Virus record (IMG/VR): IMGVR_UViG_2681813201_000017
Reading direction: 5' to 3' (one strand)
DNA length: 6,321 nucleotides
Source of the DNA: a virus
Taxonomy: Duplodnaviria; Heunggongvirae; Uroviricota; Caudoviricetes
Shown here: one piece after another, positions 1 through 6,321 of the stretch
How the letters are laid out: each line of letters opens with the position of its first letter
Position numbering within the stretch: position 1 is the stretch's first letter
Made by a program: the position numbers and the translations under genes
Notes under the pieces: model-generated
Told to the model about the DNA's origin: nothing
The model's input: only the letters and a program-made list of their open reading frames with translations
Databases searched by the model: none

Positions 1-50
1 GCGCCGGGAATGGCGCGGTCTGCAGAAAATGAGGCAGGAAAACGCATGCA

Positions 51-83
51 AAGCCATGCACCTTATCGATGCATGGCTTTTTT
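51..83. terminator. Rho-independent terminator-like hairpin, probably bidirectional, stronger on the + strand
   Basis: Perfect 10-bp stem (51-60 aagccatgca / 70-79 tgcatggctt) with 9-nt loop, followed on + strand by a T-run 78-83. On the - strand the stem is followed by tttgcatgcgtttt, a weaker U-tract. Lies just downstream of the psu stop (114). Confidence 0.55.
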
Positions 84-113
84 CAGTAAAAACGGGCGGA
101 TTTTCGGGGAATT

Positions 114-686
114 TTACACAGACTGACGTGATGCCAGTTGCGCACTTTTACGCGAAAAAATCATGTTCTGCGCAGGGGTGAATTTTTCACGGCTGTCATC
201 CACAGAAGCCGCGTCAGGCCTGAATCCGATAGTCGTTAAAATGTCGCTATCCTGTGCGGAATAATTAATTTTTTCACCCTTCGCAAGCCAGGACAGGAGG
301 GCTTCACGCAGGGCATCTGTGGCACGCTGTATGGCACAGTTTCGGGCAATGGCCGTCAGCTCACTGTAGCCCATCAGCTCCGGTGCCAGTGCCGCCGCCA
401 GTGCTGTGCCGTGCTGCTGCATAAAATCATTCAGCCGGTCGCGGATGCTGATGTGCTGAACGGCTTCATGCGAACGAATATAACGACCGGCGGCCTGATT
501 CACCTGCCATTTTCTGACTTCGATAATATTGCGTAATTCGTCCAGGCGACTGACGTTTCTGCCTTCTCCTGACAGAAGCCGCAGGTATTCCTGTTCGGCC
601 GCTGCCAGCTCATTTTTGCGTTGCAGCCATGCTGCTTTGTTATTCTGACAGGTGTCAAAGGCCTGCTGTAAGGCTGTGCTTTCCAT
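114..686 (-). CDS. psu: Psu, polarity suppression protein (Rho antagonist / capsid decoration) of P4-type satellites, 190 aa
   Basis: ORF of exactly 190 aa as in P4 Psu; N-terminus MESTALQQAFDTCQNNKAAW matches my recollection of P4 Psu; last gene of the sid-delta-psu operon order; AGAGA-type RBS upstream of ATG at 686. Confidence 0.9.
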   Translation of the reverse strand: MESTALQQAFDTCQNNKAAWLQRKNELAAAEQEYLRLLSGEGRNVSRLDELRNIIEVRKWQVNQAAGRYIRSHEAVQHISIRDRLNDFMQQHGTALAAALAPELMGYSELTAIARNCAIQRATDALREALLSWLAKGEKINYSAQDSDILTTIGFRPDAASVDDSREKFTPAQNMIFSRKSAQLASRQSV

Positions 687-759
687 CGTTATCTCTTTCT
701 CATCATGCTGAAGAATAAAAATACGGTGTGCGGCGACGGCCGGGGTTAACCGGCAGCCT

Positions 760-1260
760 TCATTCCAGACGCAGCGAATATGATTGTGTTTTTAACCGTA
801 CTGGCGGCAGTTCCTGTTTTTCATGCAGGCGTTCTGCCAGTTCGTCCGGCGTGACCGGGCGGACAATGAAGCGGGTGATGGTCTGAAGCGTTTTAAACAC
901 CAGACCACAGCCCGGATCCGTGCACACATAAAAACGCTCGGTGACTTCCTGAGACAGACGCCGCGATGTTCTTGACAGTGCAAGGCCTTTACATCTCCGA
1001 CAACAATATCCGGTAACAAGCATTCTTTTCGGGCGTTTCATACTGCCGGAGGCTGACGTCAGTGAATCGCGGTATCTCTGTTTGCCTGAAATGTATTCCA
1101 TTCCTGAATCTTTACAGTCAGAGAAAAAGCTTTCACTCGCTTCAAATGTCGCAGAGCAATAAATATTCCGGCACTGTGCAATCATTATCTTGGTGCCATC
1201 GTCCATGAAATGTGCGCGACGGGTGTGAGCAACATGTCCACACGACGGGCAGTAAATCAT
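760..1260 (-). CDS. delta: Delta, late-gene transcriptional activator with two tandem Ogr-type zinc-finger domains, 166 aa
   Basis: Start chosen at ATG 1260 (MIYCPSCGH...) rather than the ORF-track start at 1317, because this ATG overlaps the sid stop (ATGA at 1257-1260) and gives the 166 aa expected for P4 Delta. Two Cys4 modules are visible (CPSCGH...CRNIYC and CRRC...CTDPGC), as in Ogr/Delta. Confidence 0.85.
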   Translation of the reverse strand: MIYCPSCGHVAHTRRAHFMDDGTKIMIAQCRNIYCSATFEASESFFSDCKDSGMEYISGKQRYRDSLTSASGSMKRPKRMLVTGYCCRRCKGLALSRTSRRLSQEVTERFYVCTDPGCGLVFKTLQTITRFIVRPVTPDELAERLHEKQELPPVRLKTQSYSLRLE

Positions 1261-1991
1261 GACAGCAGTCCTCTGGCCTTCAGCTCTGCTCCCTGCTGGT
1301 CTATTTTGTCCTGCCACACCTTGCGCTGTGCCGGTGTGCCTGCCACCTCATAATCCATGTGCGGAAGTGTTGCCGCTGACAGTCCGGTCAGCCGGAGAAC
1401 CGGCTCACCGGTGAGGCTGATTTGCATCTGTTTAATTTTCTGTTCCAGCGATGATTTCACCTGCTGCATGACAGCCTTTTCCGGTGCGACATAGCCCTGA
1501 TGGCCGGTGGTGTTGGCGAGCGGATTTTCCTGTACCAGGATGCTCAGATGCATTGCCCGGACAAGCGCCTCACAGGTTTCATTCAGGGCGTGTTCCAGCT
1601 CATGCTCTGCATACAGACTCAGAAGATGATGATGTGCCTTCCGGTAGGCGGTGGCCGTGCTGTCACACGCCCCTTTCAGGCGTTCACGTTCAAAATTCAG
1701 CACCACGGCCAGATTGTCATATTCCTGTACCAGCTCCCGGCGTGCCACGCGCTCAATGTGGCGCTGTTTCAGCTCGTCGCTCAGGACACCACCGGCTGCA
1801 CGAAAGGCCGTGCGCCAGTCGTCAGCATCGTTTCCGTCGGCCTGCGTCAGCGCATTTTTTTCCTGCTCTGCCCGTTCAATGGCCGTGACGGTCTCATCCA
1901 TCAGGCGGGCGTTCTCAAGATGAGCGACTCTGGCCTTTTCCAGTTGTGCCAGTGCGGGTTGCAGATATTCAGGGATGGTGTTGTCAGACAT
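1257..1991 (-). CDS. sid: Sid, external scaffold protein that redirects helper capsid assembly to small size, 244 aa
   Basis: Start chosen at ATG 1991 (MSDNTIPEYLQ...) with GAGGAG RBS 2001-2006 on the - strand, giving 244 aa as in P4 Sid; the ORF track extends 6 codons further upstream (2009) without an RBS. Stop overlaps delta start. Confidence 0.9.
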   Translation of the reverse strand: MSDNTIPEYLQPALAQLEKARVAHLENARLMDETVTAIERAEQEKNALTQADGNDADDWRTAFRAAGGVLSDELKQRHIERVARRELVQEYDNLAVVLNFERERLKGACDSTATAYRKAHHHLLSLYAEHELEHALNETCEALVRAMHLSILVQENPLANTTGHQGYVAPEKAVMQQVKSSLEQKIKQMQISLTGEPVLRLTGLSAATLPHMDYEVAGTPAQRKVWQDKIDQQGAELKARGLLS

Positions 1992-2025
1992 TTTCCGGCT
2001 CCTCGTCACTTCAGGTTAAGAAAAT

Positions 2026-2043
2026 TGTGACGTACACCGGACA
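2026..2043. promoter_or_regulatory. TGT-N12-ACA dyad, candidate Ogr/Delta activator site of a late promoter
   Basis: TGT at 2026-2028, 12-nt spacer, ACA at 2041-2043, centre about 2034.5. Lies 35-50 bp upstream of the sid ATG (1991) on the other strand. Orientation and assignment (sid promoter versus a divergent rightward late promoter) cannot be settled from sequence alone. Confidence 0.4.
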
Positions 2044-2063
2044 ACAACACGACGCATTGCAGA

Positions 2064-2081
2064 TGTGCCAGCCCTGACACA
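2064..2081. promoter_or_regulatory. Second TGT-N12-ACA dyad, candidate Delta/Ogr site for the sid promoter
   Basis: TGT 2064-2066, 12-nt spacer, ACA 2079-2081, centre about 2073.5. If the site is centred near -55 as in P2/P4 late promoters, the leftward transcript would start near 2019, leaving a leader of about 28 nt before the sid ATG at 1991. Confidence 0.45.
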
Positions 2082-2140
2082 GGAGACTCATCCTCAGACC
2101 GGCAAGCCAGGAAAAGGTCGCAGGAAAAACCGGCTTACTG

Positions 2141-2178
2141 TTTGTTTTTTTATATTTTACTGTTCACCTCTGTTCACC
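2141..2178 (+). repeat. AT-rich tract plus two direct TGTTCACC octamers (alpha-binding type I iteron sequence), ori-like
   Basis: tgtttgtttttttatattttac (2141-2160, AT-rich) followed by TGTTCACC at 2161-2168 and 2171-2178, a 10-bp register. The same octamer recurs in the cluster downstream of alpha. The array abuts the N-run, so further copies may be hidden. Confidence 0.5.
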
Positions 2179-2187
2179 TTAAGAAAA

Positions 2188-2262
2188 NNNNNNNNNNNNN
2201 NNNNNNNNNNNNNNNNNNNNNNNNNNNNNNNNNNNNNNNNNNNNNNNNNNNNNNNNNNNNNN
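2188..2262. other. Run of 75 N (unresolved or masked sequence)
   Basis: Directly visible in the sequence; ORF-track reading frames that cross it are artefacts. Confidence 1.
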
Positions 2263-2317
2263 ACGATCCCATTATGCCGCGAGTCAATGGTAGCTCAGGC
2301 GGGGCAGCCTCCGGGCT

Positions 2318-2345
2318 GGCCGGTATTCTTCGAGGCCGGTATTCT
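2318..2345 (+). repeat. Tandem direct repeat GGCCGGTATTCT x2 (2318-2329 and 2334-2345) in the leader of the rightward operon
   Basis: Two perfect 12-nt copies 16 nt apart, separated by tcga. Position corresponds to the immunity region of P4-type elements, where short sequences pair with the CI antisense RNA; assignment is inference. Confidence 0.35.
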
Positions 2346-2358
2346 CACCCCCGTCTGG

Positions 2359-2400
2359 GCTATCGCCATCGAGCGTGAGAACTCCGGCGATAGCAGTTAT
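2359..2400 (+). promoter_or_regulatory. Hairpin (9-bp stem, 18-nt loop) followed by a U-rich stretch; candidate attenuator or terminator upstream of the first rightward ORF
   Basis: gctatcgcc (2359-2367) pairs with ggcgatagc (2386-2394); followed by cagttatttgct. It sits immediately before the AAGGAGG RBS at 2411-2417. Confidence 0.3.
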
Positions 2401-2424
2401 TTGCTACTCGAAGGAGGCTGCCTT

Positions 2425-2622
2425 ATGGCTACAACCCTTACCCCCTCACACCCTGAATTTGTCTTTGTGTTTGCGGCTGTCCGTCGCGCAGACCGTCATC
2501 CCCGTATCTGTATGCTTCGCACCGTCGCCGGTGATGAACGCAGTGCCCGCCGTTCCCTTGTCCGTGACTATGTGCTCTCCCTTGCTGCCCGTCTGCCGGT
2601 GGTGGAGGTGTCCCGTGCGTAA
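2425..2622 (+). CDS. Small 65-aa protein, first ORF of the rightward (early/left-operon-like) transcription unit; occupies the position of kil in P4
   Basis: ATG 2425 preceded by strong RBS AAGGAGG (2411-2417, 7-nt spacing); stop TAA 2620-2622 overlaps the GTG start of the next ORF. Identity with P4 Kil is inferred from position only. Confidence 0.45.
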
Positions 2623-2902
2623 TAAAAAAGCCCCTCAGACCGTCTCAGCGCGTCATGACGCCCGTGAACACCTCAGCATTGAGGCTTACCATAAGCTCAA
2701 CCGCGCCAGCGCCGTATCCCAGTTTGTTGGGGGTGATTTGATTCACCGTGAACTCTCCGGCCTGCATCAGCTCTACATTCCGCATATTTTCAGCTACCTG
2801 AATGAAGATATTGATTTTGTGCTGAATGAACTGAAAGCCAAAGGCCTGTGCCGCGATTTTCTCGCCCAGCAGAAAGACCGGGGAGACAGGACGCATGTTT
2901 GA
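2615..2902 (+). CDS. 95-aa protein at the position of P4 Epsilon (helper prophage derepression); start at GTG
   Basis: GTG 2615 preceded by GGAGG (2604-2608, 6-nt spacing). The longer ORF-track version (from 2375) has an N-terminal part that overlaps the 65-aa ORF in another frame and lacks an RBS. Stop TGA 2900-2902 overlaps the ATG of the next ORF. Size and synteny fit Epsilon; I cannot verify the sequence. Confidence 0.5.
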
Positions 2903-3350
2903 TTTTCCCCAGCCCGGTGAGATTTACCGTTCTGCCGGTTTTCCCGATGTGGCCGTGGTCGGCATTCTGGAAGACGGTATTCCGTGGGAAATGCCGTACC
3001 GCTGCCCGGAAATTGTCTGGAACCCGTACCGCCGTAAATTCAGTATCCTTGTGCGTATCCTCGCTGACGGACGCACCACAGACATCCCGCTGGGGCGTTT
3101 TCTGCGGGAATTTACCTGTGACCGTCCTGACCTGTTTAAACGCAGCCCCGTAAACCGGCATGCGGTACTGAAAGAAATGGCCGGAGACCCGGAATTACAG
3201 AAATGGCGGGAAAAATATCTGGATATTTACCCGCAGGACACTGTTCCGGTCAGCCGGGCAGCACCGGTGGCGCGGGAATGGCGGGAAATTCCCCGCACGG
3301 AGCCTGACCCGGAAACCACCCCGGATAACAGTTACCGCAATTATCTGTAA
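2895..3350 (+). CDS. 151-aa hypothetical protein (size and position of P4 orf151), function unknown
   Basis: ATG 2895 with GGAG 2882-2885 upstream; start overlaps the stop of the preceding ORF (ATGTTTGA); uninterrupted 151 codons in a compactly packed operon. Confidence 0.7.
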   Translation: MFDFPQPGEIYRSAGFPDVAVVGILEDGIPWEMPYRCPEIVWNPYRRKFSILVRILADGRTTDIPLGRFLREFTCDRPDLFKRSPVNRHAVLKEMAGDPELQKWREKYLDIYPQDTVPVSRAAPVAREWREIPRTEPDPETTPDNSYRNYL

Positions 3351-3378
3351 TTAAAAAACGACCCCCGAAAAATTAAAT

Positions 3379-3404
3379 GTGCGTATTCGCGCAGGGATAC
3401 GCAC
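3379..3404. promoter_or_regulatory. Inverted repeat / hairpin in the intergenic region between the 151-aa and 106-aa ORFs
   Basis: gtgcgtat (3379-3386) pairs with atacgcac (3397-3404), 8-bp stem and 10-nt loop. There is no T-run on the + strand; on the - strand it is followed by atttaatttttcggggg, so as a terminator it is oriented against the operon. Confidence 0.35.
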
Positions 3405-3423
3405 GTCTTCAGGAGACGCAGAT

Positions 3424-3489
3424 ATGCCTTATCAGTTAATGCAACCGGCACGGAATGCAGTCATCTGTCACAGGGAGAAAAGCAAATGA
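3424..3489 (+). CDS. Candidate 21-codon upstream ORF / leader peptide ([21 protein letters not shown]) coupled to the 106-aa ORF
   Basis: ATG 3424 preceded by AGGAG (3411-3415, 8-nt spacing); stop TGA 3487-3489 overlaps the ATG 3486-3488 of the next ORF (ATGA). Confidence 0.25.
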
Positions 3490-3806
3490 AAACACCCTTA
3501 CCGCCCGTCTTACGCGCTGCCCTTTACCGTCGCGCTGTCGCCTGTGCCTGGCTGACCGTGTGCGAACGTCAGCACCGCTACCCGCATCTCACCCTTGAGT
3601 CACTGGAGGCGGCCATCGCCGCTGAGCTGGAAGGCTTTTATCTGCGCCAGCACGGTGAGGAAAAAGGGCGTCAGATAGCCTGTGCCCTGCTGGAAGATTT
3701 AATGGAATCCGGCCCCCTGAAGGCCGCGCCGTCGCTGTCCTTTCTCGGGCTGGTTGTGATGGATGAACTCTGTGCCCGTCACATAAAAGCGCCGGTACTG
3801 CACTGA
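3486..3806 (+). CDS. 106-aa hypothetical protein immediately upstream of alpha, function unknown
   Basis: ATG 3486 with GGGAGA upstream; ends 14 nt before the alpha start; same strand and compact operon arrangement. Confidence 0.65.
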
Positions 3807-3820
3807 AGGAGAACAACACC

Positions 3821-6154
3821 ATGAAAATGAACGTAACCGCCACCGTCAGCCATGCGCTCGGCCACTGGCCGCGTATTCTCCCGGCGCTGGGGATTCAGGT
3901 GCTGAAAAACCGTCATCAGCCCTGTCCGGTCTGTGGCGGGAGTGACCGCTTCCGTTTTGATGACAGGGAGGGGCGCGGCACCTGGTACTGCAATCAGTGT
4001 GGTGCCGGTGACGGCCTGAAACTGGTTGAAAAGGTGTTTGGTGTTTCCCCGTCCGACGCGGCCGCAAAGGTGGCTGCCGTGACCGGCAGCCTGCCCACGG
4101 CTGACCCGGCAGTGACGGCCGCCGCCGGCGCTGAAACAGACGCTGCCCGGAAGAACGCCGCCGCACTGGCACAAACCCTGATGGCAAAAACCCGTCCCGG
4201 AACCGGTAACGCCTACCTGACCCGCAAGGGCTTTCCCGGCCGGGAATGCCGGATGCTGACCGGCACACACAGAGCCGGTGGCGTGAGCTGGCGCGCCGGT
4301 GACCTTGTGGTGCCACTGTATGACGACAGCGGCGAACTGGTTAACCTTCAGTTAATCAGTGCTGACGGCCGTAAGCGCACCCTGAAAGGCGGACAGGTCA
4401 GGGGCACCTGTCACACCCTTGAAGGACAGAATCAGGCCGGAAAACGTCTGTGGATAGCGGAGGGATACGCGACCGCACTTACCGTACATCACCTGACCGG
4501 TGAAACGGTGATGGTGGCGCTTTCTTCCGTGAACCTCCTTTCTCTGGCCAGCCTTGCCCGGCAGAAGCATCCGGCCTGTCAGATTGTCCTTGCCGCAGAC
4601 CGTGACCTCAGCGGTGACGGCCAGAAAAAAGCCGCCGCAGCCGCAGATGCGTGTGAGGGCGTTGTTGCCCTGCCGCCGGTCTTCGGTGACTGGAATGATG
4701 CCTTCACGCAGTACGGCGGGGAGGCCACCCGTAAGGCCATTTATGATGCCATCCGGCCACCGGCTGAAAGCCCGTTCGATACCATGAGCGAAGCGGAGTT
4801 TTCCGCCATGAGTACCAGCGAAAAGGCCATGCGTATCTATGAGCATTACGGCGAGGCGCTCGCGGTCGATGCCAACGGCCAGCTTCTGTCCCGCTATGAA
4901 AATGGTGTCTGGAAGGTGCTGCCGCCACAGGACTTTGCCCGGGATGTGGCCGGGCTGTTTCAGCGTCTGCGCGCGCCGTTCTCCTCCGGGAAGGTGGCCT
5001 CCGTGGTGGACACCCTGAAGCTGATTATTCCGCAGCAGGAAGCCCCCTCCCGCCGCCTGATTGGCTTTCGTAACGGCGTGCTCGACACGCAGAACGGCAC
5101 GTTCCACCCGCACAGTCCGTCACACTGGATGCGCACCCTGTGCGATGTGGATTTCACCCCGCCGGTGGACGGTGAAACGCTGGAGACCCACGCCCCCGCG
5201 TTCTGGCGCTGGCTTGACCGTGCCGCCGGTGGCCGTGCGGAAAAACGCGACGTGATTCTGGCCGCACTGTTTATGGTGCTGGCAAACCGCTACGACTGGC
5301 AGCTCTTTCTGGAGGTGACCGGTCCCGGCGGCAGCGGCAAAAGTATCATGGCCGAAATAGCCACCCTGCTGGCCGGGGAGGATAACGCCACGTCGGCCAC
5401 CATCGAGACGCTGGAATCCCCGCGTGAACGTGCCGCGTTAACTGGCTTCTCACTGATACGCCTGCCGGACCAGGAAAAATGGAGCGGCGACGGAGCCGGA
5501 CTCAAGGCCATCACCGGCGGCGATGCGGTGTCCGTTGACCCGAAATACCGGGATGCGTACTCCACGCATATCCCGGCGGTGATTCTGGCCGTGAACAATA
5601 ACCCGATGCGCTTCACCGACCGCAGCGGCGGCGTGTCACGCCGGCGGGTGATTATTCACTTCCCGGAACAGATAGCCCCGCAGGAGCGCGACCCGCAGCT
5701 TAAGGACAAAATCACCCGCGAGCTGGCGGTCATCGTGCGTCACCTGATGCAGAAGTTCAGCGACCCGATGCTCGCCCGGTCACTGCTTCAGTCCCAGCAG
5801 AACTCAGACGAGGCACTGAACATCAAACGGGATGCCGACCCGACGTTTGATTTTATCGGCTATCTGGAAACCCTGCCGCAGACCAGCGGCATGTATATGG
5901 GGAACGCCAGTATCATCCCGCGTAATTACCGTAAATACCTCTATCACGCCTATCTGGCCTACATGGAGGCAAACGGCTACCGGAATGTACTCAGTCTGAA
6001 AATGTTCGGGCTGGGGCTGCCGGTGATGCTGAAGGAATACGGACTGAATTACGAGAAGCGCCATACCAAACAGGGGATACAGACCAACCTGACGCTGAAA
6101 GAGGAAAGCTACGGCGACTGGCTGCCAAAATGTGACGACCCTGCAACAGCCTGA
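3821..6154 (+). CDS. alpha: Alpha, bifunctional DNA primase-helicase and origin-binding replication protein of P4-type satellites, 777 aa
   Basis: 777-aa ORF with AAGGAG RBS (3806-3811). N-terminal zinc-ribbon CPVCGG...CNQCG (nt 3923-4000), primase motif EGYATA (nt 4460-4477), Walker A GPGGSGKS (nt 5321-5344). N-terminus MKMNVTATVSHALGHWPRILPALG matches my recollection of P4 Alpha. Confidence 0.95.
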   Translation: MKMNVTATVSHALGHWPRILPALGIQVLKNRHQPCPVCGGSDRFRFDDREGRGTWYCNQCGAGDGLKLVEKVFGVSPSDAAAKVAAVTGSLPTADPAVTAAAGAETDAARKNAAALAQTLMAKTRPGTGNAYLTRKGFPGRECRMLTGTHRAGGVSWRAGDLVVPLYDDSGELVNLQLISADGRKRTLKGGQVRGTCHTLEGQNQAGKRLWIAEGYATALTVHHLTGETVMVALSSVNLLSLASLARQKHPACQIVLAADRDLSGDGQKKAAAAADACEGVVALPPVFGDWNDAFTQYGGEATRKAIYDAIRPPAESPFDTMSEAEFSAMSTSEKAMRIYEHYGEALAVDANGQLLSRYENGVWKVLPPQDFARDVAGLFQRLRAPFSSGKVASVVDTLKLIIPQQEAPSRRLIGFRNGVLDTQNGTFHPHSPSHWMRTLCDVDFTPPVDGETLETHAPAFWRWLDRAAGGRAEKRDVILAALFMVLANRYDWQLFLEVTGPGGSGKSIMAEIATLLAGEDNATSATIETLESPRERAALTGFSLIRLPDQEKWSGDGAGLKAITGGDAVSVDPKYRDAYSTHIPAVILAVNNNPMRFTDRSGGVSRRRVIIHFPEQIAPQERDPQLKDKITRELAVIVRHLMQKFSDPMLARSLLQSQQNSDEALNIKRDADPTFDFIGYLETLPQTSGMYMGNASIIPRNYRKYLYHAYLAYMEANGYRNVLSLKMFGLGLPVMLKEYGLNYEKRHTKQGIQTNLTLKEESYGDWLPKCDDPATA

Positions 6155-6161
6155 CCCACCT

Positions 6162-6186
6162 GACCGGCATCTGCCGGTCTTTTTTT
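6162..6186 (+). terminator. Rho-independent terminator of the alpha operon
   Basis: GC-rich hairpin gaccggc-atct-gccggtc (6162-6179) immediately followed by tttttttat (6180-6188), 8 nt after the alpha stop codon (6152-6154). Confidence 0.8.
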
Positions 6187-6204
6187 ATCCCTGAATTCCC
6201 CGAA

Positions 6205-6296
6205 GGTGAACAATCCACTGTTCACCCTTCACCGTATATTCACCCGTTATCACACTGAAATTAAAAGAGAAAAACGAAAGGTGAACAGTGTGAACA
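6205..6296. repeat. Cluster of TGTTCACC-type iterons in both orientations downstream of alpha (crr-like cis replication region)
   Basis: GGTGAACA 6205-6212 (inverted), TGTTCACC 6219-6226, degenerate cCTTCACC 6226-6233 and TaTTCACC 6237-6244, GGTGAACA 6280-6287, tGTGAACA 6289-6296. The first two form an inverted pair GGTGAACA-atccac-TGTTCACC. An A8/T6 tract follows at 6304-6320. Confidence 0.6.
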
Positions 6297-6321
6297 ATCA
6301 AATCAAAAAAAACTTTTTTCT

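Follow-up and report, generated by a model that had tools for sequence, protein, structure and literature searches.

Layout of the P4-like element

The window, by which we mean the whole stretch of DNA that was analysed (6,321 nucleotides), contains in the order of the P4 annotation psu, delta, sid, ori1, a run of N, cI/epsilon/ORF151, ORF106 (cnr), alpha, a terminator and crr (Table 1). We take cnr to be a negative regulator of P4 replication. When the whole window was compared with phage records using megablast, it matched Enterobacteria phage P4 (X51522.1 / NC_001609.1) with 98.8% identity over 99% of the query, in the reverse orientation. In the alignment with the P4 locus (L002), window positions 1-2187 correspond to 52-2238 and positions 2270-6321 to 3104-7156. 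The window is most closely related to P4-like prophages found in O145 and other strains of E. coli. The prophage of E. coli O145 RM9872 (L003) is 99.6-99.9% identical to the whole window, and more than 20 complete genomes match the last 622 bases of the window at 100%. Among the loci retrieved by the pattern scan described below, the closest to the window is 98.6% identical (L044), and none is identical. These sequence matches identify the window as a P4-like satellite or prophage.

The alpha product matches the Pfam domains Zn_Ribbon_Prim, Toprim_3, D5_N, DUF5906 and Pox_D5. Over residues 671-770, this product matches PDB 1KA8, the origin-binding domain of P4, at 100% identity. PMC2777425 refers to 1KA8 as the winged helix with which P4 alpha binds DNA, and credits it to the work of Yeo et al. 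2002 on the origin-binding domain. The alpha product would be the protein that binds the iterons of crr. As in P4, the alpha stop (6154) is followed by the terminator (6162-6187) and then by the crr unit, from 6200 onwards. No promoter-like sites were found in positions 6000-6321.

The visible part of ori1 consists of two octamers (2161 and 2171) that occupy the position of the first two of the six ori1 iterons of P4. The 82 N found at 2188-2269 stand for about 860 bp: the equivalent stretch has 865 bp in P4 (L002 2239-3103) and lies at 2215-3071 in the O145 prophage (L003). Of the P4 features, four of the six ori1 iterons fall in this stretch, together with the type 2 repeats, ORF88/alpA and the beginning of cI/icd. 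The N run probably reflects a gap in the assembly or masking, and the open reading frames that span it, e.g., 2065-2622, are artefacts. The O145 prophage has all six ori1 iterons and both crr units.

Table 1. Features of the window, with their positions, strands and the basis of each assignment.
Feature	Positions	Strand	Basis
ori1, visible part: two exact type I iterons TGTTCACC (2161, 2171)	2161-2178	+	P4 annotation
ORF106 / cnr (DUF5375)	3486-3806	+	ORF list, P4 annotation, Pfam
alpha: primase, SF3 helicase, C-terminal origin-binding domain; 777 aa	3821-6154	+	ORF, Pfam, PDB 1KA8
alpha rho-independent terminator: 7-pair stem (6 G-C), then T-run	6162-6187	+	'talpha' in P4
crr, first 120-bp direct-repeat unit	6200-6319	+	120/120 identity to P4 'crr 120bp direct repeat'
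Type I iteron TGTTCACC, exact; inverted pair, left arm	6205-6212	-	P4 'ori type 1 repeat'
Type I iteron TGTTCACC, exact; inverted pair, right arm, 6-bp spacer	6219-6226	+	P4-annotated
Degenerate iteron CCTTCACC, 2 mismatches; 1-base overlap with the 6219-6226 copy	6226-6233	+	Without P4 annotation
Type I iteron variant TATTCACC, 1 mismatch	6237-6244	+	P4-annotated
Type I iteron TGTTCACC, exact; tandem pair, first member	6280-6287	-	P4-annotated
Type I iteron variant TGTTCACA, 1 mismatch; tandem pair, second member, 9-bp register	6289-6296	-	P4-annotated
A8-C-T6 tract closing the crr unit	6305-6319		Read from sequence

The octamer cluster and the crr of P4

The cluster that follows alpha contains six octamers: three exact copies of TGTTCACC, two copies with one mismatch and one copy with two mismatches. 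The preliminary description of this DNA had given the same total, but its "at least four good" copies exceed by one the number found if good is understood as exact. It had also reported an inverted pair with a separation of 6 bp, which we recovered: the arms GGTGAACA and TGTTCACC (6205-6212 and 6219-6226) are 100% complementary and have 6 nt between them. Its placement of the cluster downstream of the alpha terminator was equally accurate, with a hairpin (6162-6179) and a T-run preceding the first octamer.

The octamers are much more frequent than expected from the composition of the window. We observed five exact copies of TGTTCACC in the whole window, where 0.20 were expected, and none of 200 shuffles reached this number. 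We then used first-order Markov models of the window to produce 2000 simulations. None of them contained a 120-bp stretch with at least four matches at one mismatch or less (five were observed), and none contained a 120-bp stretch with at least three exact matches (three were observed).

The cluster is, base for base, the annotated crr repeat of P4. Positions 6200-6319 of the window are identical to the first crr unit of P4 (X51522.1 4590-4471) at 120 of 120 positions, and 81.7% identical to the second unit. The P4 records (X05623.1, X51522.1) label these sequences 'direct repeat 1 cis replication region (crr)' and 'crr 120bp direct repeat', and give the coordinates of crr as 2733-2852 and 2913-3032 in X05623.1 and as 4291-4590 in X51522.1. 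Five 'ori type 1 repeats' are annotated in the first crr unit of P4. When their L002 coordinates are converted to those of the window (offset of 835), they fall at 6205(-), 6219(+), 6237(+), 6280(-) and 6289(-), in one-to-one correspondence with copies that had been found independently. Locally, the window differs from P4 only by four substitutions directly 5' of the crr unit, at 6192-6197 (GAATTC here, GATATC in P4), which are common to the O145 prophage.

The first crr unit ends 2 bp before the end of the window (6321). In P4 and in the O145 prophage, 60 bp of spacer separate this unit from a second one (L003 7181-7300), in which the iterons keep their offsets. The module is probably truncated in the window, which would include one of two crr units, as the preliminary description had suspected. 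The same description had interpreted the cluster as crr-like and proposed, among its checks, an alignment with the crr of P4 and an analysis of motif enrichment. Its interpretation stands, because the first revealed perfect homology over 120 bp and the second an octamer density far above background. The sequence data thus support the identification of the octamer cluster as the first 120-bp unit of the P4 crr, in a P4-like prophage. The crr at 6200-6319 was already known, since it was described for P4 in the 1980s. It is a real but ordinary site: the window confirms a known accessory site of P4 replication, and hence there is nothing new to explain.

Conservation of crr in P4-like elements

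Using a 134-bp crr query, we found crr in 1136 of the 5426 complete genomes of E. coli, always in the chromosome. The median number of places per genome was two, in line with a crr of two units. Among the RefSeq genomes of E. coli that were listed, the crr positions lacked an annotated feature ('none'). Many P4-like elements have a single 120-bp unit instead of two, e.g., L004, L005, L006 and L007 of E. coli and several loci of the pattern scan described below. In the prophage of E. coli O145 RM9872 (L003 7300-7900), the homology to P4 stops exactly where the second crr unit ends; past this point there is an unrelated AT-rich stretch, followed by a small hypothetical gene and by argO. Hence, the attachment region of this prophage differs from that of P4, and crr is the last block that they share. 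Since the homology ends with crr and the att region differs, crr moves with alpha, not with int.

We studied four diverged copies of crr (92%, 85%, 72% and 72% identity). Each of them is located directly 3' of a gene encoding an alpha-type primase, and all retain the offsets and the orientations of the iterons. In an alignment of six units the invariant columns cluster on the octamers, including TTCAC in the degenerate iteron (6226-6233) and GTGAACAGTGTGAACA at 6280-6287. The copy matching the degenerate iteron reads TGTTCACG in the E272 element. An A-run/T-run closes all six of the aligned units.

We scanned one genome per species with a crr pattern and identified 56 units in 45 loci, distributed among about 20 genera of Enterobacterales, including Enterobacter, Citrobacter, Klebsiella, Raoultella, Kluyvera, Serratia, Edwardsiella, Tatumella and Rosenbergiella. 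Around 50 of the 56 units shared the strand of an alpha homologue and lay 47-261 bp past its end, and the order alpha then crr was kept in 42 of the 45 loci. In some loci, the strict pattern was matched only by the unit located at about +240 after alpha. Four MAG contigs of 4-6 kb (L018, L027, L029 and L044) encode an alpha 98-99.7% identical to that of the window and also carry crr, in bins assigned to Clostridiales, Ferruginibacter, Ruminococcus or 'bacterium'. These contigs are most likely misbinned P4-like DNA from E. coli.

The pattern used in the scan forced three of the iterons. The evidence for conservation is therefore limited to the columns outside the pattern, and the fair test is provided by the other two iterons. 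We analysed these columns in 53 distinct units. The core GTGAA.A of the iteron at 6205-6212 is nearly invariant and the core TCAC of the iteron at 6237-6244 has 1.7-1.9 bits, both being outside the search pattern. Overall, positions 6206-6212 and 6240-6243 have 1.7-2.0 bits, save for 6211 (around 1.0), whereas most spacer columns have 0.1-0.9 bits. Iteron cores are thus conserved across genera while spacers vary freely. A few spacer positions (6214, 6217, 6248-6249 and 6256-6258) have 1.7-2.0 bits in these 53 units, like the iterons. The octamer alone explains neither these positions nor the A8-C-T6 tract (6305-6319) that closes the unit.

These results have practical uses. The crr sequence is useful for annotation, as RefSeq has 'none' at this place in about 1100 genomes of E. 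coli. Furthermore, the fixed layout of the iterons 47-261 bp past alpha reliably indicates where P4-like satellites of Enterobacterales have their right-hand end.

Some diverged elements of E. coli, of the E272 type (L006/L008) and of the EC07 type (L007/L009), have TGTTCACT in place of TGTTCACC, i.e., position 8 of the iteron is T in these elements and C in those of the P4 type. The sites of the E272 element (L006/L008) are at 3680-3772 and 8649-8740. Its ori1 has TGTTCACT in four of five copies, the same variant as its crr, meaning that ori1 and crr change together in this element (E272 only). The ori1 region of the second diverged element has one exact-core iteron only. The C-terminal binding domain of alpha in elements of the E272 and EC07 types is only 71-76% identical to that of the window. 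One might speculate, from the one element with both sites, that P4-like satellites fall into replication-specificity groups in which initiators do not cross-recognise origins, but we find this rather doubtful. If true, such groups would let several satellites share one cell, a matter that concerns the relatives and not the window.

Proposed role of crr and comparison with known systems

The C-terminus of alpha binds the type I iterons in the ori and in the crr of P4. P4 begins to replicate at ori1, with no need for DnaA, DnaB or DnaG. A second origin of P4, ori2, is located inside alpha and is also served by crr. Cnr strengthens the binding of alpha to DNA, and so limits the copy number of P4. 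Work on P4 replication includes that of Flensburg and Calendar 1987, Ziegelin et al. 1993/1995/1997 and Tocchetti et al. 1999. In the GenBank annotation of P4, crr is required in cis for replication, and it has been described as essential for P4 DNA replication (bioRxiv 10.64898/2026.03.30.715334). The P4 papers PMC12239096 and PMC8628076 make no mention of crr, and a text search of the literature for the octamer only returned unrelated primer sequences.

We propose, with a probability of around 0.95, that 6200-6319 is the first of two crr units and that the alpha-bound iterons of this unit work with ori1 in a replication of the P4 type. Each crr unit presents five to six type I iterons, of which two form an inverted pair, two more are direct and the opposite strand has a tandem pair. 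Following the literature on P4, the C-terminal winged-helix domain of alpha would bind these iterons. Alpha would also bind ori1, which has six identical iterons and lies some 4 kb from crr, and when present at both ori1 and crr it might join the two sites, by looping or by cooperative loading. The helicase of alpha would open the AT-rich part of ori1 and its primase would prime synthesis, such that the host DnaA, DnaB and DnaG would not be needed. As suggested by the same literature, crr would not be the start of synthesis and yet would be needed on the same molecule.

The role of crr might be mainly negative, i.e., crr might titrate alpha or promote handcuffing, and control copy number together with Cnr, instead of being a positive partner of ori1. 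Iteron arrays outside the start site are found in iteron plasmids, cnr (ORF106, DUF5375) is encoded directly upstream of alpha, and Cnr reportedly raises the binding of alpha to ori and crr. Yet, the annotation of P4 and the citing literature treat crr as a cis requirement, whereas a purely negative site would be dispensable, and the elements of many genera keep at least one unit beside alpha. Deleting crr from P4 reportedly abolishes replication instead of raising the copy number. We thus regard a mainly negative site as improbable, even if negative and positive roles of crr are compatible and may coexist.

It is very unlikely that the cluster is an independent replication origin, made of iterons and an A/T tract, at which synthesis would start. 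The iteron array is indeed beside the A8-C-T6 tract at 6305-6319, which is kept in all aligned units, but this tract has just 15 bp. Moreover, the P4 record puts the rep_origin at ori1, with crr merely required in cis, and the start of replication is said to have been mapped to ori1.

We rejected as almost certainly wrong the ideas that the octamers are a chance cluster, which is excluded by the shuffles and the Markov simulations, or that they are arm-type integrase sites of attP, which is about 200 bp from crr in P4 (and the prophage junction in E. coli adjoins crr), because the annotated arm repeats are different 12-mers located elsewhere (L002 7451-7474 and 7660-7710), the octamer is common to ori1 and crr, and crr is separable from att.

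Our preferred reading, that of a crr unit working with ori1, can be put next to better known systems. The window and the P4 crr are alike in the whole first unit, in the positions and orientations of the iterons, in their place after alpha and its terminator, and in the origin-binding domain of alpha. They differ in that the window holds only the first unit, within an element that is 98.8% identical to P4 and nearer to the prophages of E. coli O145. The ori1 and the crr of P4 have the octamer TGTTCACC in common and, according to the literature, are bound by the same alpha protein. Five of the six ori1 iterons are direct and around 10-11 bp apart, and synthesis is described to start there, whereas crr has iterons in mixed orientations (-,+,+,+,-,-) and is described as an auxiliary site. 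The iterons of theta plasmids (P1 incA, F, R6K) are likewise known to form clusters of initiator repeats, one in the origin and another elsewhere on the replicon. Yet, the initiators of these plasmids are of the Rep family, whereas that of P4 is a primase-helicase with a winged-helix tail and, unlike the arrays of theta plasmids, the second site of P4 (crr) is described as required for replication and not merely inhibitory.
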